DNA of 61,396 nucleotides, filler included, from Hausera hauseri (taxonomy: Eukaryota), in NCBI GenBank assembly GCA_046269625.1. It is 12 parts of 12 records of this genome, joined end to end, with 100 filler letters (N's around TTAATTAATTAA, not from the genome) between each part and the next. Parts side by side here need not be neighbours in the genome. Positions count along the whole stretch, not along the records: positions 42,441 to 48,389 come from JBJURY010164865.1; 11 more parts are not named here. One strand, 5' to 3'. Under the pieces are notes generated by a model. It saw only the letters and a list, made by a program, of their open reading frames with translations. It was not told the origin of the DNA and made no database searches. Both the position numbers and the translations under genes were made by a program. This document shows, one piece after another, positions 2,919 through 47,834 of the stretch. Numbering within the stretch: the stretch's first letter is position 1; every line of letters starts with the position of its first letter.

Positions 2919-4948
2919 CTATTCAGTCGTAGTACGGGTTAGTCGTTGTGTGCCATCAAAGAACTTTTTTCCTCTGTACGTATTGAACGTTACTCTGAAT
3001 GGCTTACTTGATAGATTTGTACTGGGTTGTTGAGCAATGTTTTGTGATGGAAATGGTAACGAAGATGAGTCCAGCAAAAAAGTTGATGTAATTGGAGGTG
3101 ATGAAAAATCATTTAGAAAATCGGTATAAGTGATGGCTGAGTTTGAATTGGATGTAGAATTGGTATCTGGAGTGTCGTCAATGAAGAAAGCTTGCTTCAG
3201 ATTCGAAATGTGGACGTTATAAGGTTTATCTTGGCGTAAGATTGTTGCCGTGTGAAATGAGAGATTCAGCAGTTTGTACGGGCCAACATATTGGGGTCTA
3301 AAATCTGACGGAGATTGATCCTTTAACCAAACAAACTTGGCAGAGTACAAATCCTTAGGAATGTAGGATTTGTTGCTGTTGAAAAGGCGACAGAATGAAT
3401 CTGCGCTGACCTTGACGAAATGAGTCTGTGCTGCACGAATGTTCTCATCTGTGGAATGGTCGTCGAGATCAGAAAGTTCAAACAAGGCTCGAATTGGAGT
3501 CCCAAAGAGTGCTTCGACTGGAGCACAACCTGTAGTGGTTGAAGGTGTGTTGCGCCATCCTAATAGAACAAAAGGTGGAATGGACGTCCAATTGCGATGA
3601 GCGTCAGCCAAGATTTTAAAGAGACTTTTATTGCACGATGGAACCTTTCAAGAAGGCCGTTTGCTTGAGGATAATATGGAGTAGTATAAAAATGGAATAT
3701 ATCCAAGCGTTTAACAAGTGATTTGAAAAGCTCAGACTTAAATTGTGGACCTTGATCCGTTATTATGTAGCGTGGGGAACCAAAACGACTAATACAGATT
3801 TTGATAAAAGCGTCGGCTACTGAGTCAGTGTTTGTGGAATGAAGAAAAACGGCTTCAGGCCAACGAGAAGCACGATACATTATATTAAGTATGTGTTGAT
3901 ACCCGTTATCGGCAGGTAAAGGACCAACTAAATCAATATGAACTGTATGAAAGCGTGATGTACAGGGAAAGTGGTTAAGTGGTGGTTCAATGTGTTTGTT
4001 GATCTTGTATTTTTGACAGGCTATGCATTCTTTAACACAGTCCTGTACATCTTTGCGCATTGATGGTCATACTACATAACGTTGAAGCAGGCGAAATGTT
4101 GCTTTTGAACCTGCATGATGGAGTGAATGCGTATGAACAAAGGCTAGCTTTTGTAAAGGTGGTGCTAGGATGACCCTTTTTAATGCGTGTATTAGATGTA
4201 TCAAAAGCTATTCCATCAGTGATCTCGTAGGATTTGAAAGAACTATGGAGATCTGTGGATGGTTGATTGGTCTTTAAGACTTCAGATGAGAAAATCGGTT
4301 CAACTGTAATAGATCCAACCGACCTCGATAGAAAATCAGCTACCAAGTTATCTGTGCCTGAGATATATTCCAAAGCAAAACCGAACGTAGAAAGGTATGA
4401 AATATGTATCTTTTGCCTCGGTGATGGCTCTTTTAATATGATGTGCAGCAGAGGTTTGTGATCAATTTGAATGGCGAACAGACGAGAGAGAAGTAAGTGT
4501 TTGAAGAGTTTTAATGCCAGAACTATGGCAAGTAACTCGCAATCAAATGTGAAGTAACGGCTCTAAGGTTGTGTTAGTTTCCTAGAATAAAATTCTAATG
4601 GCTCGTCGACACCATTAGAGATCTAGTGAAGTACAGTGCCAGTGGCTCTGGTTGAGGCATCGGTTGTAAGAATAAGATCTGCTTGGCTTTAGGATAAGCC
4701 AGTATTTCTACGATTTTAAGACCTTCGCGCAAATGACCAAACTTGGTTACCAGATCAGGAGTCCAGTAGATCAACTGCCTCTTTTTTCCTGAAGATAAAT
4801 GTGCGAAAGGAGCTGTGAGCTCAGAGCAATGAGGCGCGTATTTGTGGATGAAGTGGAGTGTGCCTAAAAAGCTTCTCATGTCAGTGGTAGTTGTTGGTAG
4901 AGTTATGTTCTTTAATTGTTGTAGTCGATCCGGTTGTGGAGAGTGGCC
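2919..4948 (-). mobile_element. Ty3/gypsy pol fragment (RT C-terminus, RNase H, integrase with GPY/F motif), frameshifted
   Basis: RSFLGTLHF, FYSRKL, ISGTDNLVADFLSR, CIACQKYK, VHIDLVGPLP, ITDQGPQF, YYPQANGLLERFH, PQYVGPYK. Confidence 0.95.
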
Positions 4949-10723: not shown

Positions 10724-11386
10724 TCATATAGTCGGTTTTTGAATTTGTTTATAGACACATACAAAACCTTTCTGATTGAAAATGTCTGTTCGTACACTCA
10801 CGTCATCGGGACACTGCTGTGTAAAGTCAATGAACAAGTATCCGTGTGGCTCGGTTGTAGCATCATGATATGCATCTATTAAGTAGGCTCGATTGTGAGT
10901 AAATGCTTGTCGTGCAACATAATCAATGATAGTCTGATCACGGGGATTTTTGAACAGCATCAAATAGTGTACGTTTAGATTTCATGTTCGATGATGTCCA
11001 CCCTGATGGAACATGTTTTGCGTAGTGATAATAACCGTCACACCACAGTGCCGTGCAATCTTCGTGAACAGGTTGTTGAAGTCCGATTGTTTCGTCGTCT
11101 CTTGAAATAAATCGTCAATGACAATAACGTCACCGTTGCGCAATCTCTCTGAACAGATCTCACCAAATTCATCAATTACCGTTATCGATGATTTCAGTTT
11201 ACAAAATTCCTGATGTGTCAAACCGGACTAACCATAATCACCAACACCCTGATGCCAGTATATGTGATTGTACCGCGGTGAATGGGACATGTCACGGTAG
11301 TTCTGCAATAGTCTACACACAAAATGTGTTTTGCCACTTTCACTGGGGCCTACAATCTGGAAAATGGCATCATTCTGCAGCTTCAT
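10724..11386 (-). pseudogene. Polinton-type A32/FtsK-like DNA packaging ATPase
   Basis: One frame: MKLQNDAIFQIVGPSESGKT (Walker A)...VIVIDD (Walker B)...ARHCGVTVIITTQN...LFKNPRD...PHGYLFID, with two in-frame stops (11228-11230 and 10982-10984). Confidence 0.92.
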
Positions 11387-11478
11387 CTAATAATAATAAT
11401 GCAGCTTTTCCTCAACAAATGATTGGTTTATAATCGTGTTACACGAATATAAATAGCTACAGTATAAACACTGTTTTC

Positions 11479-11940
11479 ATAATTTTAGCTAATATCAACT
11501 ATCGCGGATATGTTACCGAGTGTAACATTAACACACTACCTTTTAATCAATGGAAACCGATGCAGCATGTCCTAAAGTGTCCACCGGATTTTACATGCAT
11601 CATATTTCAATCGGGAAAGTGTCGTGTTATGGGCTGACGCAAACCAATCACAGCTGAAAGCAGTAAGAGTAAACTACTACCAATCGGAATTGTCCTTGAC
11701 AAAATCCAATCAATAACGGTAACGACTCAGTTAGACTACCAAACAATCAATCTTTACAAATTAGCAATGACCGCTACTGAATGTACATATGAACCCAAAC
11801 TGTTTCTTGCACTGAGACTGACACCGTTTCGTCCGCTTTTTGTCAATGTGTTCAGCACTGGAATAATTGTTTTACTCGGTATTCGGACAGTGGACTATGA
11901 ACCAATTATTAATCAAATTAAAAACTACATAAATGTTTAG
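11479..11940 (+). pseudogene. TATA-binding-protein (TBP)-fold protein, element-encoded (not in ORF track)
   Basis: ILANINYRG...TCIIFQSGKCRVMG*RKP...IQSITVT...INLYKLA...YEPKLFLAL...VNVFSTGIIVLLG shows both TBP repeats (IFxSGK; YEPELFP; IFxSGKxVxxG). The start is ATA and there is one TGA at 11635-11637. Confidence 0.8.
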
Positions 11941-12283
11941 TGAACCAAAATAACATACTCTGCATACAAAAACAAACTATAAATACCATTCCCATGCTCA
12001 TTAAGACATTACTACCATGAAAGACGAATACGAAACTGTTTGATTTTATCGGTCGCGAAATGTCTCATGTACCCGATGATGATGGTAGTTTAAAGTGTCG
12101 AATGAATATTAAACTGCAAGGATACAAGGAAAAAGTCGGTATCAAAAGCCCGATTTAGCGTGTAGCAGAAGCACATTTTAATTATCAATAGATTTTGTTG
12201 TTTTACCGTTCTTCTTCTTCTTCTTCTTCTTTTATTAACCCAATTAGCAAGTAATGCAATTTTAAAAAATAGGCATAAGAATA

Positions 12284-12754
12284 ATGATTATGAATTATGT
12301 AAAGATTATCTTAACAGACAAAAATGCCTTTGTACCCAGACGTGTTACAGCAAACAGTGCAGGCTACGATGTGCTTTCCAATGCCATTGTGACAATTCCG
12401 AACAGCAAAATCAAATGCATAACGACTGAGACTCGATTGGCGATTCCGCCCGGTTACTACGGCCAACTTTTATCGAAAAGCGGATTGGCAAAGCTCGGAG
12501 TGACAGTTGTGGGCGGCGTCATTGATTCAGACTTTCGTGGTGAAATTAAGGTGTTGCTTGAAAACCAATCCGTGGAACTGTATGCTTTTTCGAAAGGCAA
12601 TGCAATCGCACAAATCGTTTTTCTTCGCTGTGAAGAGGTGGAATTCAGTGTAATGTCACCGAAACAATGGGGATTCTTTTGTGTCAATGAATCAACACGA
12701 AATGAACGCAAAGTATTTGGTTTTGGTGATATGGACAAAACCACCTATGTTTAA
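12284..12754 (+). CDS. dut: Trimeric dUTPase
   Basis: Motifs AGYDV, KSGLA, GVIDSDFRGEI, IAQIV and a degenerate motif 5; ORF is open. Confidence 0.93.
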   Translation: MIMNYVKIILTDKNAFVPRRVTANSAGYDVLSNAIVTIPNSKIKCITTETRLAIPPGYYGQLLSKSGLAKLGVTVVGGVIDSDFRGEIKVLLENQSVELYAFSKGNAIAQIVFLRCEEVEFSVMSPKQWGFFCVNESTRNERKVFGFGDMDKTTYV

Positions 12755-29205: not shown

Positions 29206-29590
29206 ATTCTTATAGTGAATCGTATTTGCTTTCGAGCACACCCGGTCACATGTGCTAATCATCAATATTGGATGTATCCGAAAACCGATATTATAGATTT
29301 TTGCACACTTTCACATGTGCTGCGCACCTGCACTGTGCACCAATTGATGAGCACTAATGTGCAGTATCGATTAGCATTTGGTCCCAATCGATTCGACCAA
29401 TTGTTCAATGTTCAGCTATCAATTTGTGAAATGTGCAAAAAAATGCTGAGCAACGTGCTTAACGGTATCTAACGTTGCCTAGCAAATTTCCGATCGATAT
29501 GCTCCATGTGCGCCATCGATTGGCACTTGTGCAAATTTATTTATCGATTCGCACACCCCCGTCGGGGTGGTGCAGACTTCCCATTTTCTA
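29206..29590. repeat. Palindrome-rich 'common region', copy 1 (3' end with GC hairpin)
   Basis: Aligns by eye to 34330-34705 and 43850-44180; CACCCC..GGGGTG hairpin followed by CAGACTTCCCATTTT. Confidence 0.85.
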
Positions 29591-31299
29591 CCTACTTTCT
29601 GCAACCTCACCAAACGTAGGGGTGCTAACCCTTGGTTTAAAATCGCCAAGTTTTCCTTGAGGCACATGCCTAAACCTCTCATTTTCTCTGGAGGTTTGCT
29701 CTATTTTCTCCAACTCCTTCTCTACTTCTTCTATTTCTAAAACTTTTATCCCTACTTTGCCATCGTCAATCCTTTTATAGCTTTACCTTCCTTTTCAAAT
29801 TGTAATTTCCTTCTTTTAAATGGTGCTTCATTTACTTCCATATCAATGTCTACTTCTTGCTCTTTTACCCCCTGCGTAATATCCCAATCCATCGAGATCC
29901 TTTCATTGGCCCAACTTATTGACCATATTTTCTATAGATCTCTCTTCCTTGACTTTTACAAACTTATAATCTTCTTGTGGAACCCATTCCTGTGGTGCTC
30001 ATTTTTGCCCCATAAAATTGGTATATAGTATGTTTTACTTAAATACACAAACAAATGTAAATGAAAAAAATTTTATGCATCGTTTTCAATTCGTTTAATA
30101 ATTACATGCCGATTGAATTTTTTTATATACTGATTTATTCAGTTTTGTTATCCAATGTAACATTTCAGAAATCGTTTGGTGTTACTATTTTAGAAATTAC
30201 GTTCAGGCTAAAGTTAATGATATGTTACTTATTCAAGTCAATCCGTACAAATTAAATTTTTACCATTTTGTTAATTTTGATCTCGAGATATTACTGAAAC
30301 GAATTTGTCGGATTTAATTTTATGGAATATACTACAATGACCTTTTCGCTTCCTAATACTCAATCAGTATTACAGATGTCTCAAAATCTACCGAATTCTG
30401 ATGAAAAAAATTACAGATGTGAACGTTTTTCGTTGGGTCCAAATAATGCATACGATGATAAAATATTTCTCGTATCAAAACCAACCAACCAATCCACAAT
30501 TACGTACTTCCGTGCGATTAAATTATTCGAAAAATATGCAACCCTTCTCAATTCCACTTTAGGCTTCGTATTAAATTTTTCAAACAGCTCATAGCCAACT
30601 TGGAGCACTTGCCACACTGTAATTTGATGATCTTCCCATTTTCCTTTTGTGTTTTCTCATCTTTGCTGGAAAGGGAACATTTTGACTTAAATCTGACTTA
30701 CATCTAATACATCCGAAACAAACGATACTATTACCTTTAAAAAATTTCCTACATAAATATAAACCACTATCGTTCTTTGCTATTCTACATTTTCCTGCAC
30801 TTTTAACCTAATTTTAAGTTGTACTTCTACTACTTTTATCAACAATTCCCTTACACAGGATATTTACCATCTTTCTTTTACTTCTACTATCTGATCGGGA
30901 AACCGTAGTTCCCTAATCTTAATAAACATTCTAACTAAGAAATGCCAAAATTGGGCACTTCCATCTTTCAACTTATTAGGAATACTAACCGGTGAAATAA
31001 AGTTCATCTCTCAACAACAATCAAGGCTATACAATGAAAGACTGCTTTGAGTAACTGCTATAAAATTACGTTACAATATATAGATTGTGTTTTTGAAATT
31101 TTTTAAATTTCAGATTGTAACATAATTATATTTTGTATTAGTCAGGTTGTTTTACGTTATGAATTACTAAATAAATTTGTTTCAATAAATACATTTGTGG
31201 GTTTCCTTCAAATTCAAATAACCTATCCGGATACTATTGCATTTTATCTATAATTGAATTTAACAGGCTGCTGCTTTCCGCTAAGCAATGTATGCTGTC

Positions 31300-32550
31300 C
31301 ATTTATTGTCGGTGGTAAACGATAATGAAGATATTGACACCAGTGAACTAGTTCTGATGATGGTGAAAATGACATTGTACAGTCCACAGATGATCAAGGG
31401 CATATTGGTGCATTTGAGGGGCAATAGTAAAGAAAGTTCTGATGATGAAAATGAAAGAAATTCCCATCAAAGCAAAGGAAAATGTTTTGCGAATGATATA
31501 ACTCACAGCATGAATCACCCCTGGATCGTGTATGGCCGCGTAACATAATGCTCGAGAGACCCAGGAGATTAACTATTGTTTAATTAGAATTCAGGCCTTT
31601 CAACTATACATGCCAAAAGATATTTATAGGAGTGGCTGAAAGAAATACAAACAGAAAAATTAGAGGTCAGCTTCGCGTACCCAACAAAAGCTATTACTAC
31701 AGCAGGACGTTTCAATACAATAAAATATTAGTCTGTCTTGGAATTTTCATCAGAGCTGGCTGCAATCGAGACAACTTGACAGCCACTAGAGATATGTGGG
31801 ATAATGTCGATGGAAAACAGTTTTATAAATCCTCCAAGGGTTTAAACATATTCAAGTACTTTTTGAAGACAATACGATTTGATAATTACTGAACTGGTCA
31901 AGGTCGTTTAGCTAGTGATCGTTAAGCTGCAATATCGGAAGTATGGGATAAATTTATTTACAACCTTTGTCGGTTTTACATTCCTTGCTCAACTCTTACA
32001 GTACATGAACAACTTTAGGCTATAGAGGGATAGTTCCCTGTAGCATGTACATTCCTACAGAACCCAAGAAATATGGTCTCAAAATCTCTTGGATCTGTCT
32101 CTGAGAAAAATCGAAATGTCTTGTTTAGGTCTTCTCACGGCAGAGGTGATATTTCACGTGAAAATAGTAAACCGATATTGAATACTACTGATTACATGAA
32201 GGCAAAGTTGGTGTCGACTAAATGGACGAGAATTTAGCTGTGTTCAGCTGCGTTCGAAAAACCTTTCGTTGGACATTATTAGTGTTTTTCAACATGATAA
32301 ATGTGTTAGTTAATAACGCGTTTTGCACATGAATCCTGATGGATATCATAAGAGCCGTAAACAGTTTATGAGATAATTTTCTTATGATTTGGTTACAGTT
32401 ACATGACATACCTTTACCACTTATTATTTTAGGCGTACTGATAAGGGTTTACAATGTTCAGCATTTGTAATCATAACCCTAAAATTGTGTATGTGTCTGT
32501 GTCATGTAATAATTTCGTGACTGCATGCAAGTGTGTGTTTCCATAGTAAA
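31300..32550 (+). mobile_element. piggyBac (PGBD4-like) transposase remnant
   Basis: LGIFIRAG...IRFDN...AAISEVWD...LTVHEQL*..YRG...YIP.EPKKYGLKI...GVD. Confidence 0.88.
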
Positions 32551-34014
32551 GTCTTAATAAATGTTCCTAAGGTGATATTCATTACATCATATCTTACGCA
32601 ATATTTTTTGATCTCTGTAATTTTTATGGTTGTTGGTAGATTCATCAAAAACTACTAATTACTGCGAAATATTTAATTTGGATAATTCTTTTTCATTTAG
32701 GTACGTTTAAAATGTAACCAGGTGCATATGCATACTCTGACCACCTAATCATCAAATTGTACTGAATTTATAAATTTAGTTAAGCTCACTAATTCAAAAT
32801 ATTAAAATTGATATTCTGCGACTTATGGTCGAAAACCAAGATTGATTTCTAAAAGCCTGTCATTCCCGTTATATTTTATATAATCTTCATGATTAAACGA
32901 ACTCAACTGACAAAATACTGTTTGAAATTTTAAACCGATGCATATCATATTTTTTCTTTTTCAATTCTTCTAGCAAAAATCCATTTTAGTATCCGTCAAA
33001 GAAATGTGTTCATCAAATAGCATTTGTACTGCTCTCGGTTATTTCCGGCTCAATTTTGATAAATTTTCTTGAGGTAATTGCAGAAATGAGAAAAGCAGAG
33101 TAAAGATAAAAATAGGTTTTTTGTGTATTCTTTCGAATATTCTGATTGAAGTAATACTTTTGAAATTATTTTAAAATTATTTAATGTACACGTTAAATTT
33201 AAAATACAATGTAGCTTCCTAAGTTTTATGGAAAAGTAATTGCATCTAATTGCGTTTCTTGAATGAGAAAAATAAAATTATTTTTACGAATGTTTTAAAT
33301 AAAATAAAATTACGTGGGAGGTGACATTTTGAATCAATTGTATTACTTCATACCATCGACAGTTTGTTGGGTAATTATCAAGAAATGCTTAGTGTTTATT
33401 CAGATTCGAACTTCTGCACTGAACTGTCTCACACCAAGATGTTCTGCTAAGAGCGGAAACTTGTTGTTCAATGAAGAACAGAAGACAAGGTAACATATGC
33501 GAACGCTGGTAAAATGCGATTCTTAGAAGGGGCACTACTTTACTTCTAAACGCCGATTTCGATTAAATTCTGTATAATGGGTGTTTTCTAGAAATTTGCA
33601 TTGATCTATTGTTAAAATAAAAACAGCTTAACTTAAACAAAATTAAATTTTATTAACAGGTACATTAACAATGACAACTAATGAATATTAAAAAAATAAT
33701 TAGCGAGTTTTGATTATTCCATTTCGCCGAATAATGTCAACCTTCCTCCTAGTAGATTCCGCTAGTCATCGTATAACGTCTATCAAATTTTCGAAAGCCA
33801 TATTTAAAACGAGTAATCAGCTGTTCAGAATCCTTTGGCATAAACCTTTTTATAACATCTAGAAAATTTCATTCGGTAAACCTTCTAGACATTTAGTGAG
33901 ATTGTGTTCTTTTTNNNNNNNNNNNNNNNNNNNNNNNNNNNNNNNNNNNNNNNNNNNNTTAATTAATTAANNNNNNNNNNNNNNNNNNNNNNNNNNNNNN
34001 NNNNNNNNNNNNNN

Positions 34015-34705
34015 GCACTGCACAGTACATAACAATCTGCATCTTGATGTTCGCTATCTATCTTCACTTAACACCGGTCATTTCCATCAATCCTACGCTA
34101 CACAATGACCAAAATGTTAAAAGTGAAAAAGTGCCTTGGCAACCGTATCCAAGAACACACCTGATTCGCGTATTGCACTGATCGATAGTACACGAAGTAC
34201 TGCACCTTCCAGTATATATACCATATTAATATTATTGATTTTCAATTTATAGCGGAAAGGCCTATGGGAAGTCTGGCCCAGTTGGCAGTTATTCGAAAAC
34301 CAATCAATATATTTAAATTCTAACTGCACTACACACAGTGCATCATGTATGCTACCGATTGCACCCGGTGCCATGCCCCATTAATGAATATTGGTAATAT
34401 CGGAAATCCGATATTATTGATTTTTGCACACTTGTAAATGTTCTGCACACCTACACTGTGCACCAATCGATGCGCACTGATGTGCACTATCGATTAGCAC
34501 TTTGTCCCGATCAATTTGATCAATTCTGCACTGTGCAGCGATCGATTTGTGAAAAGTGCAAAAGTGCCCTTAGTAACCGTGCCTAGGGGCTCCGTCACCT
34601 AGCACTCTTCGGATCGATAGTGCTTCGTGTACAATATCGATTGGCACTATCGATTTATCGCCGCGTGCACCCTGCCCCCCAGGCGGTGGGCCAGAATCCC
34701 CATTT
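34015..34705. repeat. Common region copy 2 (3' part with hairpin)
   Basis: Shared blocks AAAAGTGAAAAAG, GCGGAAAGGCCTATG, TTTAAATTCTAACTGCAC, CGGAAATCCGATATTATTGATTTTTGCACAC and CAGAATCCCCATTTT. Confidence 0.9.
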
Positions 34706-35117
34706 TTACACTACTTCCTTCTGATAATTTGCATACATGATACCTGTATTCTGTCCTTCTGATCTCAACTGCATCTTTTAGATTGGTGGTTTTCGGGCAT
34801 TTCAGAAATCTGATCTGATACCCCATGAAATTTTGGACGGCTTTAAATTGATCCATCCTAAGTGCCTTTACTGTCCTTTTTGGCTGTGTCAGCAATTCAT
34901 CATCTTCGAACATCTTGATAAATTCGGCACATTCTTTATCAATTGCATCTAATGGTTTTGCGCTGATCTTCTTAATTTCTTCTTTTTTGGTACTGGAACT
35001 ACTGGTGGTGGCATTCGTGCAGCGTCTTCAAATGATTTAATAAATCCAACAATTATTTCATCATTAATATCCTCCATTCTTTTTTCAGGTTGAGTGAAAT
35101 ACTGGGAGTCCGTCATT
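34700..35117 (-). pseudogene. Hypothetical protein with basic NLS-like patch, frameshifted
   Basis: MTDSQYFTQPEKRMEDINDEII...PVPKKKKLRR, continued in another frame by MFEDDELLTQPKR... Confidence 0.4.
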
Positions 35118-35344
35118 TCACTGGAGCAGGAAACATCATTGCAATAAGATATTTTGAATAAATGAAAATTATAAGGGCGTCAATACACAATGTCTTGAAA
35201 ATTTTAAAATTCAAATTTGAATTTGAATTTTTGCGATATTCTAGAACATTCTAGAATATTCTGGAACATGCAAAAAATATTTCTGTTTTACTGCATCAAT
35301 TTATTTTACAAATCTAATGCGTTGTTTAACACACGCTTTAAACT

Positions 35345-35842
35345 ATGCCATTTAAGTGCTGAGCAATATTAATTACAAGGGCTTCACTACAGCTCCGTTA
35401 GATGGACTTCTATTCCAAAATAGATCTACACAATGTGCTTTACGATACCCAGAATTTACAATTATACTCTTTTTCAGCGGAAAATGTAGAATAATGAGCT
35501 GCAAACAACCTATCAATCTGTGCAGTTTACCCTTCAATATCAAAATTCAATCAACACAATCAATTAGAGTGATGTGTGATTTTTTTGAGCCGATAAATCT
35601 CAATCTATTGGCAATGAACAGTCCATCTATTTACGAACTTGAATTGTTTCCTGTACTTAGACTAACTTGTTATAATCCTATGTGTAAATGTGTTTCAAAC
35701 CGGAAAAATTGTTATTACCGGCTTGAAATTTTTCAATTATAGTGATTTTGTTATTAGGGCTTTAGGCAATATATTATTATCGACTTATGTCTCTTTTCGT
35801 AAAGCAACATGCGTGTATACAACTTTATTAACACAACAATAA
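35345..35842 (+). pseudogene. Second TBP-fold protein, frameshifted
   Basis: LSNINYKG...FTIILFFSGKCRIMSCKQPI...QSIRV...INLNLLA...YELELFPVLRL, then after a frameshift VNVFQTGKIVITGLK; collinear with 11479-11940. Confidence 0.82.
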
Positions 35843-35871
35843 TAATCTGTCATTATACCACCTCTACGTGA

Positions 35872-36123
35872 TCAATACTGAATATCAACCCCCTCTTCTT
35901 TGTCAATAATAGCGATTTCAGTTTCATCATCACCGTGCACACTGTGTTTGCAATCTTCGCAACATTCTTCAGACAATTCAGTATCTTCAGTTTGATTAGA
36001 TGCATCTACGTATTCATTTTATCCACCAAGGTCGCATTGAACACATGAATATTCTGAAACATCTTCGTAGGACGCATCATATTCTTTGTTCATATCAATT
36101 ACTAGATTATTAATAAAGTCCAT
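35872..36123 (-). pseudogene. Small acidic Cys-containing hypothetical protein
   Basis: MDFINNLVIDMNKEYDASYEDVSEYSCVQC...ELSEECCEDC...; one internal stop; TATATAAA about 100 bp upstream. Confidence 0.4.
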
Positions 36124-36289
36124 TATGCAAGTCATATTCTACATTTAGCACTTGTATATACACCCCAAGTAACACACTTTGTTTTAATGCACTAATTATA
36201 TACCGGCACCAAATTCAATTTATATATAGGTTTTCATTCATGGGAATCGAACGACGTCATTAGATTCTTCGAATAATTTACGCTTGATC

Positions 36290-37351
36290 AAGTATTCGAG
36301 TTCGAATAGCTAATTATTCGACTGTTAAGCTCGAATTCGAATATCTAACATCATATTCCGATTTAACATATATCACTTGCTATCCCCATACGCTCTCAAA
36401 TTTATCGATTCCCGCTTCACTGAGCTTTAAACGCACATTTTGCTTAATTAAAATATTGATTTTATATCTATATAATACATTTTCATGGAATAATTTTAAT
36501 GCATAAGGAGGTTTTCATAAATGATGAATCGATTGCCTTTGTTAGATTTTTTGAAAAGTTCAAAGTTCGATTTTCTAACTCGAAAATATTCGAATTTCGA
36601 ACCTCTGACTTGAGATTCGAGATCACCATAGTCGACATTCTATCTACTCCCGCTAATTATATTATGGAATTTTGAGTCATAGAAGCAAATAAAATCTATG
36701 GGCATTCGCCACAAGTTACACTTCCGATCGATTTTATTCGAAAACTAATTGATAAATTTAAATTCTAACTGCACATTTATACTCTGCACCATGTTTCTGT
36801 TCCAATGCACCCGGCCACATGTCCTAACCATCAATATTAGAAATTTCCGAAAATATTTATTGTTAATTTTTACACACTTGCGCACGTGTTTTTGCACATC
36901 ACAATATACAATAAGGTGCATCTCAACATGCTCTATCTACCTGTACTTGACCCTGATCGATTGCATCAATCCTGCGCTGCACACCACCAAATATGTTAAA
37001 AGTGAAAAGATGACTTACCAACCGTAACGAAAAGAACACTTGATTCGACTATTTTATTAACCGATAGTGCATCCAGTTCTCTACCTACTAGTATATGTCC
37101 AATATTGATATTATGGATTTTCATTTTATAGCGGAAAGGCCTATGTACCTTCGCCCTCAGTTGACGTTTTATCAAAAACCAATAAATAAATTTAAATTCT
37201 AACTGCACATTCACAGACTGCGTCATATGTGCTATCGATTTCACCCGCTACCGGGTTCATATCATCAATAGTGATATTATCGGAAATCCGATATTATTGA
37301 TTTTTGCACACTTGAACATATGTTTTCGCACTGCACAGTACATAACAATCT
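36290..37351. repeat. Common region copy 3 (TCGA-rich block + ~430-bp TGCAC-rich subunits)
   Basis: Collinear with 42945-43980; TTTAAATTCTAACTGCAC at about 36757 and 37191. Confidence 0.9.
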
Positions 37352-37961
37352 CCATGTTTTTCATTGCAACAAGTGCTCTTGCTTCTTCTGTACCTTAGCT
37401 TTACCTACACAGCATCTATACTATTCACAAGTAAACATCCTTGCAAATATTACTAATGTCTGTGTGAAACGTTTTTTAACCTTAGTAAAAGGCCTTGTTC
37501 TCAATCACCAAGACAGTATAACAGAGCATCCTGGTATCAGCTGGAGATAAGGATGGAGGATAATTGTGACTGCAATATACAAAGTGATCTCAGCCGTGTT
37601 ATTTCTTTACAGCTGATGCAGCAGGTACCCAAAGCATTCCAGTTGATTGACTGATTGGCCCTTTTTTGTCCTCTCAGGCAGTTTGAGATGAAGAAAATTG
37701 CCCAGATAAACAGCTTCTTTCATGACTAAGTCAATCAATGTTTGATCTACAACTCCTGTTACAGTCAAAGCATGCTACATTTCTGTTATTCTATTCTGCA
37801 TCTTTGTGTCTTTATGCTTTGCTCTCCAGTTTATCAAATAATGTAGCATCAAACATTGTAATTCCTTTGTGCAGAGATAACTTCCATGATTTAAAGCATT
37901 GGGAGATGTTGTCTTTTGTGCACAAATCTCCCATCCCAGAACCAAGTTTACCAACAATGTG

Positions 37962-38060
37962 TTTACTTACTTACTTATCCCTACGACCCCTTTGTGGAGC
38001 ATAGGTCGTCTACAAGAGCTCTCCAACCTTTCCTGTCCTGGGCCTTTCTTTCTATTTGGT
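37962..38060 (-). mobile_element. RTE-clade LINE 3' end with (TAAG)n tail
   Basis: QIERKAQDRKGWRALVDDLCSTKGS* followed by GATAAGTAAGTAAGTAA. Confidence 0.8.
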
Positions 38061-38160
38061 NNNNNNNNNNNNNNNNNNNNNNNNNNNNNNNNNNNNNNNN
38101 NNNNTTAATTAATTAANNNNNNNNNNNNNNNNNNNNNNNNNNNNNNNNNNNNNNNNNNNN

Positions 38161-41100
38161 TACATATTACCGACCCTTCCATTGACAGCATAATACAAAA
38201 GTACTTCAATGAGCATGCTATCGGAACTCAAAACCCATCGGATTTCCTTAAAATTGCATTTTCTCAGCTGAGTTCCTTAGGCGTCACTCCAATAAACAAT
38301 GCCGGTCTTCTTCGTAGGTATTTTCTTTCTTCTTTACCCACCTCTATCAGAGCGTTGCTAACTGTAGTGGACCATTCAACGGCACTCGAGAAACTCGCCT
38401 TACTGGCAGTCAGAAGTTTCGACCTCTTGCAATCAAATGGTTCACAACCAGTAGCTGCAGCAACCACTCACACACCATCACACACAGATAACATTTTATT
38501 TTTGCAACAACTGCAAATGATGCAGAAACAGTTCGACACCCTCCAATAGGCAATTTCTGCGATTACAGCACAACTCAGTGATTTATCTGTGCCTCGAAGA
38601 ATTGAAAACCGTGTTTCGCGCAATTGTGGCCTTTCAAGGAATTCTTTTCGATCCAGATCTTGAGATGGGAGAATAATTTGCTTTTATCATAACAAATTCC
38701 ACAGAGACGCAATAAAGTGTCTTTTGGGCTGTCGATTTTACGACTAACGTTATGCAGTAGACAGCCCAATCTGCATTTATCACACAAAGTATAAGTCCTA
38801 GGCTAGATCGCGGGTGTCAGGATGCAAATATTATAAAAAGCATTCTAGTTTTTCTCCATCTTCTTCGCTTCCTGCTCTCATCATTTCTATTCTTTTTCCC
38901 AACAAACCTCAAAAAACTAACAACGCCGCCACGGCACATTCTGGTATAGGCAATACCGCTGAATCGTCTGGCCGTCTCAACACCGCCTCGGCAGTTTTTT
39001 TGATAAAAGCTGCATTGCTCCCTGATAATGCCTCACACATAGACTTCCTTATCGATTCAGGAGCTGCATTTTCACTTCTTCCTTTGTCATTCGCTCCTAC
39101 ATCTAACACAGCTTTCTCTCCTCCACTCTAACTGCCTGTGGTTAACCCTTGAACATTGTAGGTACCACAAAATTTTCCTTCACATTCTCCAACCTACCAG
39201 GGAAATTCTTTCGGAAATTTCATATAGCGAATATTAGATCGCCCATAATAGGCTCCGATTTCCTGGCTGCATACGATTTGTTCGTCGACTATAAGCATAG
39301 ATGTCTCCTGCGCAGAAACTCCGTTGCAAACACCAACAAATGTTCACCAGACGACCAGTCATACACCTTGTCCTTCTCTGTTTACTCAATTGTCAATTTG
39401 ACATGCTGTTCATCGACTGATAAGAATAAGCTTAATAATTTATCCATATTTTCAATTGCATCAAGTGGCAACAAATCAATCTTGAAACAATCGGTTGAAT
39501 CGAATGTCGTTAATGAAGTGTTCAGTCATTCTACATCAGTTACAGTTACTGACTTTTCCAATAATATGCCCTCAACATTCTTTTAGTTGGAATCCAATCT
39601 CAAATCCCACATCAAAACTTTTTGTTTCCGCACTCTCAAGAAGGACATCAGTTTCAAGCCGCATTCTACAACTTATCACCACATAGTCACCAAACACCAA
39701 AGACCTATCAGACAAAAGGTCAGACCACTGTCACCTAGTAGACGAAAAGCCATTGAATCAGATTTCAATGAACTCGAAAAGGCTGGCATTATTCGAAGAT
39801 CCAAATCACCATGGGTTTCACCTTTGCATGTAGTGACAAAGAAAGATGGCACTTACAGACCATGTGGTAACTATCGGCAATTAAACAACTTAACAGCCCT
39901 GGATGCTTACCCTTTACCTCTCATAAAGGATATCCTGCACAGACTTACCAACACTAATACGTACTCCACAACTGACTTGCATAAAGCTTATCGTCAAATT
40001 CCGGTTGCACCTGATGATATTCCAAAAACTGCTGTTATTACTCCATTTGGCCTCTATGAATATATTTTTATGTAATTAGGTTTACGTAGTGCTTCCCAAA
40101 CTTTTCAACGACACATTGATACCGTCCTCGCAGGCCTTGACTTTACTCATCCATACATTGACGACATATTAGTTGTCTCCACATCTGTTAAACAGCATCA
40201 AGAACACCTCCGTATTATCTTTCATAGACTACATCACAGCAATTTGCAAGTCAATTTCTCTAAATGTATTTTTTTCAAAAACGTGTTAATTTTCTAGGCC
40301 ACGTGATCACTCCTAACGGCCACTGTCCACAACCGGATCGACTACAACAATTGAAAAACGTAATGCTACCAACGACCACGACAAATATCAGGAGTTTCAT
40401 AGGCACACTACACTTCATCCACAAATACGTACCGCATTGTTCTGAGATCAGAGCACCTTTCGCACATCTATCTTCAGGGAAAAAGAGACAGTTAATCCAC
40501 TGGACTCCTGATTTAGTCAAAAAATTCGATCACTTACGCGAAGGCCTCAAAGCCGTAGAAATACAGGCCTATCCGAAGACCAAGGCAGATCTTATACTTA
40601 CAACCGATGTCTCAACGACAGATACCGGTGCAGGACTATACCAGATTTCCAACGGTGTTGAGGAACCATTAGATTTTTATTCTAGGAAGCTTACACAACC
40701 CGAAAGCCGTTATTTAACATTTGACCGTGAATTACTCTCCATAGTTCTGGCAGTAAAACATTTCAAACACCTACTTCTTCCTCGTCCATTAGTTATTCAA
40801 ACTGACCACAAGCCACTTCTGCACATCTTGTCGTTAAAACAACCATCGCCGAGGCAAGAGCGACATATATCGTACCTGTCTACATTCAGTTTTGTTTTGG
40901 AATACATCTCAGGCACAGATAATTTGGTAGCAGATTTTCTATCGAGGTCGTTTGGCTCCATTACAGTTGAGCCGATTTTCTTATTCGAAGTTTTAAAGGC
41001 AAATCTACCTTCTGCTGACTTCCTTAGTTCCTTCAAATCTTTCGAGATCATTGATGGCATTGCTTTTGATACTTCGAATACCGGTAATAAAATGATCATT

Positions 41101-41985
41101 CTAACTCCACCTTTACAAAAGTTAGCTTTCTTCATACGCATTCAATCCATCATCCGGGTTCGAAAGCAACCTATCTCCTGCTTCAACGTCATGTAGTTTG
41201 GCCATCAATGCGCAAAGATGTACAGGGCTGGGTTAAAAAATGAGCTGCCTGTCAAAAATACAAAATCAACAAACATCTTAAACCGCCACTTTACCATTTC
41301 CCATGTCCATCACGCTTTCATACAGTTCATCTTGATTTCGTTGGCCCTTTACCTTCGGACAACGGATATTAATGTATCCTTACAATGATGGATCGTGATT
41401 CTCGCTGGCCTCAAGTCGTTCCTCTTCGTTCAACGAACACTAGTTCAGTAGCCGACGCCTTTATTAAAATCTGGATCAGTCGTTTTGGTTCCCCACGTTA
41501 TATAATAACGGATCAGGGTCCCAATTTGAATCGAAACTTTTAAAATAGCTTGTAAAGCACTTCGGGATATCCCATTTCCATAAAACTCCATATTATCCTC
41601 AAGCAAATGGCCTGCTTGAAAGGTTCCATCCAACAGCAAAAGATTCTTTAAAAATCTTAGCTGACACTCATCATAATTAGATGTCCATTCTACCATTTGT
41701 TCTACTAGGTTGGCGCAACACACCCTCTAGCACTACCGGTTGTGCTCCAGCCGAAGCACTCTTTGCGACTCCAATTCGGGCCTTATTTGAACTTTCTGAT
41801 CTCAACGACAACCTCACAGAGGAAAACATTCGTGCAGCACAATCTCACTTCGCCGAGGTCAGCTCAGATTCATTCTGTCGTCTCTTTAACAACAACAAAT
41901 TCTACATTCCGAAGGATTTATACTCCGCCAAGATTGTGTGACTGAAGGATCAATCACTTCGGGTTTTAGACCCCAATATATTGGC
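38161..41985 (+). mobile_element. Near-complete internal region of the same CsRn1-like gypsy family (gag-PR-RT-RH-INT), degraded
   Basis: Collinear with 15765-17915 and 3280-4948; IDSGA, YIDDILV, TDHKPL, NLVADFLSR, TDQG. Confidence 0.95.
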
Positions 41986-42340
41986 AGTAGTTGGAAGGGA
42001 GGAGTTTTCCCCAACCCCCCCCCCCCCAGGGAAGGAAGGAAACCAATAGGAGGAGAACACGTCATCACGGGGAAGGGAAACTGGCGAATGGGAAGAGGAC
42101 ACGTCATCGGGGGGAAGGAAGGAAGCCAATGGGATTAGAGGACGAATCAGAGAGCTTAGGGGCCAATTGGGTTTTTTCACCCCGGAACAAAGCGGTTTTC
42201 CTACCCTGGAACAAAGGGATTTTCCAACGCTGGAACAAAGGGGTTTTTCTACATTGAACAAAGCGGTTTTCCCTTTAATGAGAAAAGCATAAGAAATAAA
42301 AATTTATTTACATAAAATGGAATAATATCCATAGGCGACA
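41986..42340 (+). mobile_element. Polinton/Maverick terminal inverted repeat inserted in the gypsy integrase tail
   Basis: Begins AGTAGTT exactly where gypsy FRPQYIG breaks. Contains a poly-C tract, CCAAT and CACGTCA motifs, and 4 x ~24-bp GGAACAAAG repeats. Homolog at 50452. Confidence 0.75.
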
Positions 42341-42944
42341 NNNNNNNNNNNNNNNNNNNNNNNNNNNNNNNNNNNNNNNNNNNNTTAATTAATTAANNNN
42401 NNNNNNNNNNNNNNNNNNNNNNNNNNNNNNNNNNNNNNNNAATAAAGTATTCGATTGAATTTGTGGCCATAATAGATCCTCATGGTATTGTGGCAGGTTT
42501 CTGGCTCATGTATTGGAACCATACATTCTTGGTATAATTTGCACATCTAAAAACAAAATTATTTAACGACAACAAATACGAAAAGACTTATCATTCTGGA
42601 AAGTGATTTGCGGAACTGAATTTGGAAATAATGAAAAATATAGCTATGTCAGCACGCACTGTCTAATTTTGAGAATTGATGCGGTAAAACACACATATGC
42701 AAAATAATTTTGACGTATTAAAATACATGAAATAATGGTGGGGTAAATTCGGCAATGAATATTGTATAGCCAATGTGCATTTGTTTCAATGCATCAAATG
42801 CATGAATTTGTCACGTACCATTTTCTTGGTTTAGTTTTGCTGCATCAAGTATTTTAAATTATCGCGCACGCCATTTCCGAATATGTTATCGTACATGACG
42901 AATCGATTGGCAACATCATATTCTTTGAATAATGCACACATATT

Positions 42945-44180
42945 CGAATATTCGAGTTCGAATAGCTGATTATTCAAGTTTGAATATTCTTTTTGATCAT
43001 CTAACTTTTTATTTCGATGCAGCACATGCGACTTCCAATCCAGCTCCGCTATTAGATTTAACGATTTCCGCTTCATTGAACTTTGAATTCACATGATGCT
43101 TAATTCAAAATATTGATTTGGTATCTATATAGTACATTTTCATGACATAAATTTTATGCACATGGGGATTTTCCAATATAAGGAATCGATTTCCATCATC
43201 AGATTTTTCGAATAGTTCGAACTTTGATTTTCGATTTCGAAAATCCTCGAATATCGAACTATCAACTCGATATTCGAGTTCGGCATACTCGATTTCCTAT
43301 CTATCTCCGTTCAATGTTTGGTCAAATTTTGCTTTCTTACGCTTAAATAACACTGAAAAAATAACCATTTTGCACTTTCAATCGATATTAATTAATAACT
43401 AATCAATAAATTTAAATTCTAACTGCACGTTCATATATTACACCGTGTTTGTGTTCAAATGCACTCTGTGCCGAGTGCTAATCATCCATATTGGAAATAT
43501 CGGAAATTCGACATTATTGATTTTTGCACACATGTTTTTGCACTGCACACCATAGATAAGGTGCATTTCGATGTGCTCTATCTAACTACACTTGATCCCG
43601 TTCAATTTCATCAATTCTAAGCTGCACAGTTGCAAAAGTGCGTAAAGTGAAAAAGTGCTCCTGTACACCGATCAATAATCACAGCACACTCGATTTGTGC
43701 ACTGATTGAAAGTGTATCGTCTATTGCACGCGCCTGTATATGTGTCATTTTGATATCTTTGATTTAAGATTTATACCGGAAAGGCCTATGGCGGTTTGGC
43801 CGCACTTGCGGATTATTTGAAAAACAATCAATCGTTTTAAATTCTAACTGCACATTCATATACAGCATCAAATGCACTACCGATTGCACCCGGTCCCGAA
43901 TTCTAATGATCGATTTTTGAAATCTCGAAAATCCAATATTATTGATTTTTGACACTTGCACATGTGCTGCACACTTGCCCTGTGCACCAGTCGATGCATC
44001 TCAATGTGCTCTATCGATTAGAACTTTGTACCGATCGATTCGATGAACAGTGCATTGTGCAGCGATTGATATGTTAAAAGTGCAAAATGTGCATAGCAAT
44101 GGCGCTATATCAATCGGCAAATGTGCAAAATTGATTTATCGATTACCCCTCCCTCCGGGGTGGGCAGAATCGCCATTTTA
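42945..44180. repeat. Common region copy 4 (most complete), directly upstream of pPolB
   Basis: TCGA-rich block, two TTTAAATTCTAACTGCAC subunits (~43410 and ~43836), ACCCC..GGGGT hairpin, CAGAATCGCCATTTT. Confidence 0.9.
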
Positions 44181-44526
44181 TTACAACTCTGGTAATATAC
44201 ATTCACCAGAATCATGCGAATAAACCGTGTCAATCTACTATGGTGCAAAAATCGGCGGATGTCAATTTTATATATGCCCAACCTGTGAGGTGATTTCGTG
44301 ATTACATTTCAATGCGTTTCGACAACAACATCGATGTTATCTGTCATACTTTAGGAAACCGAAAAAATATCGTTCGAGAACACAAATATATGATAAACAT
44401 GGCCAAACAATTTGTATTAGACCAACAATTTCCAACAACACATCAACCAGCCAAGCGAGCAAACAACCAGACTAAAGAGTCCATTCCCATGAAAAAACAA
44501 AGACTGCAAAATCAAACTCTAAAAAT

Positions 44527-47500
44527 TTGAAACTTAATGTACAATCTGTTTTTGCTAATAATTATTTGAGTTTCTGTTTTTATGTTTTGCCCGACTATCT
44601 TATTTCTACTCGACCGCCTAAAGAGATTCTAACTACTTTACAAATGTACACTTCTCGGTTTCCATCTTGTAAGATTCAGTATGGTCTTGAAATTCTTTTT
44701 GAAAATTCTGAAGGTGACTTTAAGGAGGCATATATTTCACACAGAGCTGTACAATATAAGCAATCTTACCGGCAATCGGTAGCTGATAGTTTAAGTAAAC
44801 AAATTGAGAATTTTTCCGAAATGGGTAGTGGGTGGAAGCTTGTGAAAATTCTTAAATACAGTTTTCATATAGTGAAAACAAGACCACCACCTTATTTGTC
44901 TGGCAAGTCCTATATTCCTACATCTGACGCTTTAAATTTCGCAAAGGCCGTTATTAATGTGCAAAATGACGATATTTTGTGTTTCTTATACTCCATTCTT
45001 GCAGTCACCAAGTATTCTTATATCAATCATAATAGATTTAGAGTTGGAATTTACACTCCTTATTTAAGCGCGTTGAAATATTCTGTCGATGATATGCCGA
45101 TGAAAATATGCAACATAGGTAAATTTGAAAGACAAAATCCACAGTTGTCAATTAATGTTTTTCTGTTTTGTGAGGTGGACGATGTGGATTTTGATGAAAA
45201 TATAGTAAAACATTTATTTGTTGATATTTTGTATCGCAGCAAAAATCCCAATGGTACTGTAGTTAACTTACTGATTCTTGAGAATGGTGATCACTTTCAC
45301 TATGTTGCTATCCCTAACTTGAATCGCCGGTTAAACGTACAATCTAAAAACATAAGAATTCAATGTAAACATTGGTGTGAAAAAGGTTTACACAGCTTTA
45401 GATACGACACTGCTTATGCTAAGCATTTACCAATGTGTATGTGTAATTCTAAATGCATGACTTTGTATAAAATGCCAGAAAATAAGTTTTGTGAGTTTAA
45501 GGACTATGCAAAATTCATAAGTCCTCCTTTCGTTGTATATCCTGATTTTGAATCGGTTCTTTGCCCTGACGATAAGGTTAAACATATTCATTTGCCTGCT
45601 GCAGCTGGCCTTCTCTTAGTGTCCCCATCAGATATTAAATATAGGCAATTTGTTGTTGAAAATTCTATAGTCGAATTTTTAGCTTGTCTGGAGGATATAA
45701 TGAAAACCTTAGTTTTTCCTTTCTAAGAGAATGCAAAAAAATCGATGATTCTGTTAACTTCTGAATCGTCTCGTTTTAAAAATGCAACAACTTGTTACCT
45801 CTGTCATGAAACCGGTTCTCAATTTGGTTGAGATCACTGTCATGTTACGGGTAAATTCTTAGGCACTGCTTGCAACAAATGTAACTTATCACGTCAGGTC
45901 AGATTCAATTTACCTGTTATGTTTCATAACTTGCGTGGATATTACCTGTATCATACCTTGAAATACGCATTGAGTAAATTCGGAAGTTGGGAATTTAGTA
46001 TTATTCCACAAACAACAGAGAAGTTCCTAACAATGAATGCAATGATCCGCTGTTCAGGTAAAAAGTCAGTTACTATTAAATTTCTAGACACTTTGCAATT
46101 TCTATCGGCTTAACTGAAGACTTTAGCTTCAAAATTAGATTGTTACCCATTTACTGAGTCGTCTTTTCCTTCTGAAATTATTAATGGAAAAGGTATTTTT
46201 TCATATACTGCAGCCAAATCTTTCACTGACTTGCAGTCTATTAAGGAATTGTCGCCAAAATTGGATGTGGTTAGTGATACGTAAGCACAACTGGCTTGGA
46301 CGAAATACAGTTGTACCTGTCTTTTAGATTACGTGTTGGTATACATGAAACTCGAGGTATACTTGTTAGTCTGTTTTTGAGCGGTTTAGAAAAGAGGTTA
46401 AGTTGCAGGATGATTTAGAGGCAGTTAGTATCGTTTAAATTCCGGGTTTATCTAGGGCGACAGCATTAAAATCAAGTTCTTGTAAGATTGAGCTTATATA
46501 GGATCCTGAAATGTATCCGTTCTTTCAATCAGGTATTCGCGGCGGTATGATTTTTGTAAATAAGCATAAGGTTGTAACAGATGAAAGCACCAGTCTCTTG
46601 TATATAGATGTAAATAATCTCTATTGCTGGGCTTTATCTCAACCTCTGCCATTTGTGAATTTGACTTGGATATACGATGAGGACACATTAACAAGCCTGA
46701 CTGAGCAATTGCCTTTTATTAACACTGTTAGGGAAAAACGAGGCTTAGTTTTGAAGTCGACTTGAGCATTCCGGAAGACAAACATGGTAACTTTGATTAA
46801 CTACCTCTAGTCCCTATCAACCGATGTCCTCCTGGCTCTAAAGTAAAGAAATTTTCAGTGACACATGAGCGTAAGTATACTATATTGTTCACTACAGGCT
46901 CTTACAGTTATGCATCGAGTTAGGCGCTGTAGTTGAAAAGGTTCATCGGACTGTTGAGTTTGATCAGGAATACGTTTTTAAGGATTACATAGATATAAAT
47001 ATTGAAAAGAGGGCTGCAGAAAATAATCCTTTTGAAAAAGACTTCTTTAGGCTTAATAATAATATCTTATATTGGAAAACAATCGAAATTCTGCTAAAAA
47101 TATCAATCCTTAGACTGTGCAATAATGCTAAAAGCTTAGTTACATATGCTAGTAAGGCCCAGTTTAAAGAGAGCATTATAGTAGTCGATGATCTGGTTGC
47201 CGTTCTTCTCGATAAAGACATGGTCACCTTAGATAGGCCCTCATACATTGGTCTGGTTGTTCTGAATCTATCCAAATTATGAATGTATAAAATGAATTAC
47301 ATAGAGTTGTAGTCATATAGGCACCAGTTTTAGTGTGAACTTAATGTTTTTTCCGGTGACACTGACAGTTTCTTTCTTGAATGTCGCGGTGTTGATTTGC
47401 GAACACAGCTCTTACCGGCAATGATAGCCAATGAATAGTTGGACACTTTGAACTATGACAAGAGTGATCCACTGTACTCGACTCGTTTCGCGTCTGTAAT

Positions 47501-47834
47501 TGGAAGATTTAAAGACGAAAGTAAGAGCTACGTTGAATATCAAGAGTCAATTTTCCTACGGCCGAAATTCTATGCCCTCAAAACCCAAACGAAACCAGTC
47601 CTCAAATGCAAGGGCGTCGATCTCAAACAGTCCGATTTGCAGTTCAGCAACTACTTACAATCATACGAAACCGGTTGCAGTACCATGGTGGATCAGGAGC
47701 GAATTGGCACCAAAAATCACCAGCCGATGACAATCCATTCGAGAATAAAGGCGTTGGATCCATTTGATGACAAACGTCAGTGGATAACAAAGAACAAAAA
47801 TGTCTCATATGGACATTATTGTACAAATGTGTAA
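44527..47834 (+). pseudogene. Protein-primed family B DNA polymerase (Polinton type) with vOTU-like and endonuclease-VII-like segments
   Basis: GSGW; INVQNDDILCFLYS...HYVAI; VYPDFES (ExoI); V*DHCHVTGKFLGTACNKCN; FHNLRGY; KGIF; IRGG; YIDVNNLY; NNILYGK-like; GDTDSFF; GRFKDE; LRPKFY; DDKR. Confidence 0.95.

Follow-up and report, generated by a model that had tools for sequence, protein, structure and literature searches.

Short contigs of the Hausera hauseri genome carry a non-coding region that stands beside quite different virus-like genes, and the question raised by this locus is whether such a region is held in common by the parts of a modular virus, is an ordinary interspersed repeat, or forms the end of a larger element. 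An earlier note on the same DNA had taken the first of these views. The repeat is real, and is probably a known sort of feature that had been read backwards. In the reading which we favour, and judge likely, members of an endogenous Polinton/Maverick family end in this repeat, as a terminal (inverted) repeat whose outer edge is ...ACT, the DNA past that edge is target, and many relic or non-autonomous copies are present in the genome. What was observed in its support is that three copies share a fixed end, that a gene is interrupted there, that a conserved cassette lies on the opposite (block-A) side and that abundance is very high. A self-closing unit in one contig, the abundance itself and a TBP-like gene stand out as unusual.

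Sequence window and depth data

The window, that is the whole stretch of DNA analysed (61,396 nucleotides), is composed of 12 unlinked contigs of 4.0–6.8 kb each, joined by N44-TTAATTAATTAA-N44 spacers, and because the contigs are artificially joined only adjacency within a contig is informative. Dynein, kinase, LIM, Gypsy-type RT, Tc5 and piggyBac remnants point to a repeat-rich animal genome. One Gypsy-like family is found in contigs 1, 4 and 9 (3282-4948, 15766-17915 and 38161-41985; 82% identical), its copies adjoining fragments of a kinase, a cadherin-like stretch and a dynein heavy chain. Contig 5, which is GC-richer, harbours an ORF of 351 codons (19141-20193, minus strand) with no Pfam match, presumably resembling a DIRS-type gag. 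The capsid-like ORFs of contig 6 (26690-29103, minus strand) also gave no Pfam match and a single-sequence predicted fold of pLDDT 29; by motif we take them to resemble Polinton major capsid and penton genes.

Depth was drawn from two public runs, X1 and X2, covering 0.48 and 0.07 of the sampled words of contig 8, respectively. X1 may be the assembly's own source and is not independent, and X2, at 0.07 of words, serves solely as a second depth profile. A total of 44,450 X1 contigs aligned to contig 8 at 80% likeness, and the depths summed over them are not copy numbers, as repeat units cross-map. Single-copy depth in X1 is about 3–4, with repeats hundreds to thousands of times deeper.

Architecture of the repeat

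Four copies of the repeat, 70–76% identical, are present in 3 of the 12 contigs (7, 8 twice, and 10), all on the plus strand and together occupying 5.8% of the window. The diverged copies and their shared, ordered blocks were rightly described in the earlier note, pairwise alignments reaching E 5e-131 (copy 8b with contig 10, 70.0% identity over 1103 bp; copy 8a with contig 10, 74.2% over 558 bp; copy 7 with copy 8a, 73.7% over 395 bp); its four loci stand, with their extents corrected to those of Table 1. A profile search of the 12-contig window returned no fifth copy and no minus-strand copy, and the repeat motif had 0 matches in viral contigs and 0 in metagenome contigs.

The repeat is laid out as a block A of ~500 bp, itself a decayed duplication of ~282 bp, followed by tandem units of ~430 bp (spacing 425–434 bp) and then by a hairpin end, copy 8b breaking off mid-unit at 37351. 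Short palindromes are dense within it: its 3.5 kb contain 24 ATCGAT sites, as against 20 in the remaining 56.9 kb of sequence. The terminal unit is closed by a 17-bp inverted repeat, identified in copy 8a and in contig 10, and one matched G-C to C-G change between the two is only suggestive of covariation, two cases being compared. The linker before one internal unit (37143) shows no complementarity to the ends (8–9 of 17 positions). Rfam, applied over 29206-44700, gave four sub-threshold matches, all outside the repeat, and no known ribozyme or RNA family within it.

Table 1. Features of the repeat, its neighbours and related gene remnants, in window positions
Feature	Position	Strand	Remarks
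Fullest repeat copy, 1,308 bp	42881..44188	+	Contig 10; proposed Polinton terminal repeat, outer end right
Sub-parts of the contig-10 copy	block A 42881-43386; unit 1 43387-43811; terminal unit 43812-44188	+	Unit spacing 425 bp
Copy 8a	34015..34715	+	Second half of internal unit and terminal unit; ends exactly ACTACT (34710-34715)
Copy 8b	36226..37351	+	Block A, unit 1, first half of second internal-type unit; spacing 434 bp
Copy 7	29206..29596	+	Terminal unit from contig start; ends CCTACT (29591-29596)
17-bp inverted repeat closing terminal unit, copy 8a	34264..34280 / 34687-34703	+	15/17 paired
Counterpart 17-bp inverted repeat, contig 10	43788-43804 / 44160-44176	.	11 Watson-Crick and 2 G.T pairs
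24-bp exact match to 37328-37351	34015..34038	+	Contig-8 start; closes 34015-37327 into a 3,313-bp cycle
ORF-A remnant	34716..35180	-	Contig 8; open frame into repeat end; E 5e-10 to L011
TBP-like gene remnant, frameshifted	35356..35791	+	Contig 8; 77% identical to P0008 over first 110 residues
Acidic ORF-B remnant	35857..36120	-	Contig 8; place and strand as acidic ORF of L012/L013
Unrelated flank	37352..38060	.	Low depth to ~37930 (4.25 at 37390-37659); read as host DNA
Gene-start-like motif	42613..42647	-	Contig 10; shared with ORF-A 5' region of L012 and contig 8; 83% over 35 bp, E 0.002
Broken pPolB (protein-primed DNA polymerase B) gene	44263..47831	+	Contig 10, beyond repeat end
62 open codons running into contig-7 end	29597..29782	-	Contig 7, beyond copy 7
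Contig 3 cluster without repeat	10727..12751	.	ATPase-like ORF (-), second TBP-like 11482-11931 (+), dUTPase 12266-12751 (+)

The end of the repeat

In contig 10 a GC hairpin (~44140-44172) is followed by CCATTTT (44173-44179) and by the end hexamer ACAACT (44183..44188, plus strand), and hairpins of -6.9 to -8.5 kcal/mol lie near all three ends. Similarity had been thought to stop at CCATTTT, but the shared sequence runs 9 bases beyond it in all three ends, 4 of the 5 columns at positions 5–9 after the motif being identical throughout (chance ~0.001 by simulation). Past the end, the flanks of the three copies match at 12–21 of 60 bases. When set in one register the end hexamers are ACTACT (8a), CCTACT (7) and ACAACT (contig 10), the Maverick motif (ACT)2-3' thus being exact at one of the three ends and within one mismatch at the other two. 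The three end copies are related, so that this agreement counts as one test and not as three. In its favour, hexamers within one mismatch of the motif occupy 295 of the ~60,400 window positions (18 of them exact). The commonest end of vertebrate Mavericks is given as 5'-(AGT)2//(ACT)2-3' (PMC8097293).

These ends, together with the internal layout, bear on a reading in which the repeat is a non-autonomous interspersed element in its own right (Helentron/HINE-like, MITE-like or satellite-bearing) with thousands of copies, whose viral neighbours simply come from repeat-rich contigs. We regard this as unlikely. Like HINE/DINE-1 elements the repeat is non-coding and high in copy, with central tandem units and a hairpin near its 3' end (PMC4067079 for HINEs). 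It makes up 5.8% of the window, and contig 7 has piggyBac remnants and no recognised viral gene. HINEs are described with subterminal inverted repeats of 12–15 bp near both ends and a palindrome 8–35 bp from the 3' end (PMC4067079), whereas contigs 10 and 8 contain 0 subterminal inverted pairs (at least 9 exact, or at least 11 with one mismatch; the 5' boundary is uncertain). HINEs also have T-run termini and TT as their target; here the terminus is not a T run, and similarity persists for 9 bases past it. The repeat goes about halfway towards the features of a HINE.

Two further terminal signatures were sought. The 3' terminus of Helitrons is CTRR, and the three ends do not share it in register, with CTGG directly after the end in contig 10, CTGA 5 bases on in copy 8a and none in copy 7, which again counts against the independent element. 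Common regions of nanoviruses and begomoviruses are marked by a rolling-circle stem-loop nonamer; this pattern, NANT(A/G)TTAC, is present at 0 of the 3 ends on either strand, and its absence speaks against a viral common region.

Gene remnants beyond the end

The sequence beyond the hairpin is likely to be target DNA joined to the end, and not cargo, a reversal of polarity that follows from ORF-A being cut at the junction. When ORF-A of contig 8 is aligned with its relative in L011, the score has risen to 106 once the codon at 34721 is reached and gains nothing over the 22 codons that follow; the strong matches stop at 34742-34739. The L011 protein continues for 85 residues more past the contig-8 end point and is then followed by another gene, and the frame in contig 8 meets no stop before its entry into the repeat. 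Because homology ceases there while L011 continues and the frame stays open, the repeat end is placed inside a gene, and because homology halts at the codons just before the end, the position of that end is fixed independently of the hexamers. Among 1.84 billion representatives 0 homologues of ORF-A were found; the top Atlas score was 0.77, and the L011 form had no usable match.

Contigs 10 and 11 both contain a pPolB of the PF03175 kind. That of contig 10 is 43% identical to P0001, itself a PF03175 match at E 3e-31; the contig-10 frame has no in-frame ATG from the end to 44644, with core homology from 44617 and weak homology from 44263. Truncation of this gene at the repeat end is only suggestive (pairwise E 0.02), and the contig-10 pPolB was missed by a profile built on N-terminal Cys/His repeats. 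Since it lies beyond the end, it would relate to the contig-10 repeat as target. The second pPolB, in contig 11 (51570-53300), is more decayed and is not accompanied by the repeat. The flank of copy 7 has no Pfam match of note in three frames, and no homologues in a search restricted to one of the three, the least coding-like; piggyBac transposase remnants (PF13843) are located further on in contig 7, at 31584-32485, and no viral gene was recognised in that contig. The different genes that had been described after the end are indeed there, a pPolB remnant in contig 10 and a TBP-like gene in contig 8, but probably as targets.

The cut in ORF-A also bears on the proposal of the earlier note, that of an origin or packaging region shared within a segmented or modular Polinton-like virus, and on a variant of it with a shared terminal repeat as in Drosophila Vesanto virus, a multi-segment bidna-like virus; we now consider both very unlikely. 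In their favour, neighbours differ among the copies and no contig links pPolB to capsid-like genes, although such linkage is beyond the reach of contigs no longer than 6.8 kb. Against them, the copies are only 70–76% identical, and a segment would be expected to hold whole genes, whereas ORF-A ends 85 residues short of L011. L003, a relative of the pPolB, moreover has pPolB and weak ATPase, protease and penton matches on one 9.8-kb contig. The inverted ends of this Polinton-like viral contig (1-493 and 9332-9821) overlap the 3' end of its pPolB and may be a real repeat or an assembly artefact. Searches of viral contigs with three queries (pPolB, TBP and contig 6) gave no match; an alignment search of viral contigs with pPolB gave 10 loci, 4 with long matches, and the repeat was absent from these 10 pPolB-relative loci at E up to 1.

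The block-A side and its cassette

A TBP-based scan yielded four loci, of which L011–L013, all short contigs, were accepted and the fourth, a 33-residue match, was set aside. Their TBP is 55–59% identical to that of contig 8. L011 contains ORF-A and TBP and then a further gene; L012 and L013 contain TBP, an opposed acidic ORF and then non-coding DNA. ORF-B of contig 8 is borderline in its match to this acidic ORF (score 42; shuffled 95th percentile 40, maximum 47). The non-coding DNA of L013 is a tandem repeat of 153 bp, of which 1.9 copies run to the contig end, matching the contig-8 repeat by position, with a best DNA match of only E 8e-4 over 29 bp. Because these relatives display the gene/TBP cassette and then a tandem-repeat region of their own, the interior of the element is assigned to the block-A side, and the equivalent place of the L013 region beside the cassette argues against an independent element.

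TBP is regarded as an interior gene of the family because it also lies between an ATPase-like ORF and a dUTPase in contig 3, which is free of the repeat; this association had been reported in the earlier note and is confirmed, the ATPase-like ORF having a weak P-loop-family match (E 0.002–0.009). A second ATPase-like fragment, 79.5% to that of contig 3, occurs without the repeat in contig 12 (58003-58293). The TBP-like gene is short (~145 aa) and stands in a Polinton-like context, with intact relatives (P0008-P0023, L011-L013) in other samples; the term TBP is absent from the main text of the Polinton-related papers examined, whose supplements may list such genes.

In contig 10, the gene-start-like motif of Table 1 suggests that family DNA is present on the block-A side there too. 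The block-A neighbours of contigs 8 and 10 differ yet have this 5' motif in common, and two sorts of inner neighbour would fit either left and right ends or subfamilies. TTTCATT(T)AT recurs just upstream of several family genes (42636 and 35167, minus strand; L011 1190/1214; L012 239, minus strand, 300 and 324), a possible promoter or start-site element.

Abundance

In X1 the 14 repeat bins have a median summed depth of 98,350, the 7 bins of 34690-35634 one of 816, and the flank a depth of 4.25; among the positions listed, the median is 17,104 for 12 in the repeat and 662 for 28 in the cassette. In X2 the median is 2,159 for the repeat versus 17.6. The repeat accordingly exceeds most of the cassette in X1 by ~25-fold (listed positions) to 120-fold (bins), and the flank by thousands-fold. 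The ranking is not in doubt, with the repeat a highly abundant component of the genome and most of the cassette far less abundant, but multi-copy too. The earlier note had named many copies with host flanks and TSDs as the picture of an ordinary transposon, and the abundance supplies half of it. Depth is uneven within the cassette, the 3' part of TBP and ORF-B (35635-36174; X1 depth 14,000–74,000) being much deeper than ORF-A and 5' TBP, and this stretch may mark an abundant shorter derivative. Further out, within the flank, 37930-38060 has an X1 depth of 224,070 and no Pfam match, and its translation presumably resembles an RTE-type LINE C-terminus.

An excess of repeat over cassette of this size is far above the 4–6-fold expected from two ends with 2–3 units, and abundance is the main evidence against a plain TIR. 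Vertebrate Mavericks have a mean of 22 copies and a maximum of 287 (PMC8097293), and 1,676 validated regions are given for one coral (PMC11131425). Relic or non-autonomous copies are posited because the abundance exceeds the vertebrate Maverick counts. The very high summed depth is also what an independent element would show, and for a repeat so abundant, presence in 3 of 12 repeat-rich contigs requires no special tie to viral genes; if the abundant copies are short TIR derivatives, the two readings overlap.

A self-closing unit in contig 8

The start of contig 8 matches the last 24 bp of copy 8b exactly, and this match ends precisely where copy 8b breaks into unrelated DNA (37351), the unit types on either side of the overlap continuing each other. 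Public contigs with exact matches have depths of 14.6 and 23.5 inside the unit versus 4.25 and 2.7 in the flank (3–9 times). A tandem array, a free circle or collapsed near-identical nested copies all give such a picture, and the closing joint 37351 to 34039 is not among the joints listed (15 of 101).

A 3,313-bp unit closed by an exact overlap, and deeper than its flank, speaks in favour of a segmented virus, and the modularity seen in the earlier note survives to the extent that the unit closes on itself, with ORF-A nevertheless cut at the junction. Vesanto virus segments share terminal repeats (PMC8363768), and pPolB, a non-coding region shared by different genes and a unit of ~3.3 kb are further likenesses to Vesanto and to nanovirus-begomovirus common regions. 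Vesanto segments have inverted repeats at both ends (PMC8363768), whereas the contig-8 cassette, alone in being flanked by two copies, has them in the same orientation; its genes are interrupted or degraded, and the unit joins low-depth, host-like DNA at 37352. Titles and abstract openings of the literature matches listed include no segmented Polinton. What remains of the cis-acting region formerly proposed is a likely end or origin region of a Polinton-type element, with segmentation unsupported.

The low single-copy depth of X1, set against that of its repeats, raises another concern, namely that the end junctions are assembly chimeras, in which the graph branches at the natural end of the repeat and is continued into the highest-coverage repeat. 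The 24-bp overlap resembles a k-mer overlap and, among the matches listed, no public contig bridges the three end junctions (31 bases each side). A graph needs reads across a join, however, so that each join exists in some molecule, and chimeras would change linkage further out but not the fixed position of the end; they would explain the bias towards viral flanks and not the nature of the repeat. We hold this explanation to be highly improbable.

Comparison with Polinton ends

Polintons replicate by protein-primed synthesis from short terminal repeats, and their ends are joined by an integrase. By analogy, replication would here start from the AGT-repeat terminus with pPolB as its primer, and a retroviral-like integrase would insert the ...ACT-3' end into its target. 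That target would often be one of the family's own genes, in a nearby copy or within the same molecule. Most copies would be relics or non-autonomous derivatives that keep the end region and have been amplified, and a low-coverage assembly would favour repeat-to-repeat joins. A Polinton of 13–25 kb is flanked by two inverted copies of its repeat and by a target-site duplication of 5–8 bp (usually 6 bp), whereas each contig here offers a single end. For the inverted partner, 0 minus-strand copies were found in the 12 contigs, each of at most 6.8 kb, and none of the 40 ORFs scanned was a Polinton-type integrase; by eye, integrase-like ORFs can be made out in contigs 1 and 9, within Gypsy-like DNA.

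The repeat resembles the TIRs of Polintons/Mavericks (adintovirus-type) in its (ACT)2-like end, perhaps in its length (~1.3 kb in contig 10) and in the nearby pPolB, ATPase-like, dUTPase and RING genes, and its decayed coding sequence has a parallel in vertebrate Mavericks, 96% of which are degraded (PMC8097293). The 1,308 bp of contig 10 fall inside the Maverick range of 46–1,447 bp (PMC8097293), with 100–1,500 bp also reported; the length would be 1,803 bp if copies 8b and 8a are a single repeat. It differs from Polinton TIRs in its ~430-bp tandem units, its inner 17-bp inverted repeat, a far higher apparent abundance and the TBP-like gene inside. Terminal repeats in direct orientation, as multiple or tandem insertion of Polintons leaves them, recall the direct repeats derived from Polinton TIRs at C. 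elegans eri-6/7 (bioRxiv 10.1101/2024.01.15.575659) and tandemly integrated polintons (bioRxiv 10.64898/2026.10.13.758929), from which the present case differs in that the end has been joined into one of the family's own genes and the unit seems to be self-closing.

Implications for the family

Retroviral integrases can also join an end into its own molecule, as intramolecular integration, and the contig-8 cycle is the picture that would be expected of an end joined into its own gene. Extending this, the family may repeatedly join its own end into its own genes and so give rise to circles or tandem units of sub-genomic size, each with a single terminal repeat and a handful of genes, as in the 3.3-kb TBP unit; full-length helpers would amplify these, and they would re-enter the genome in thousands, as a defective-interfering or proto-segmented population. 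We offer this as a speculative and rather improbable extension, and none of the literature matches listed for Polintons contains the word autointegration. If true, such self-joining would be direct genomic evidence for the use of ends by a Polinton integrase, and would show a way in which modular units could arise from a monopartite element. The terminal-repeat reading, if true, would add to the Polintons an unusually abundant family that has a TBP-like gene and whose terminal repeat is long and built of tandem units, and would mean that a Polinton end in short contigs can mimic a viral common region.
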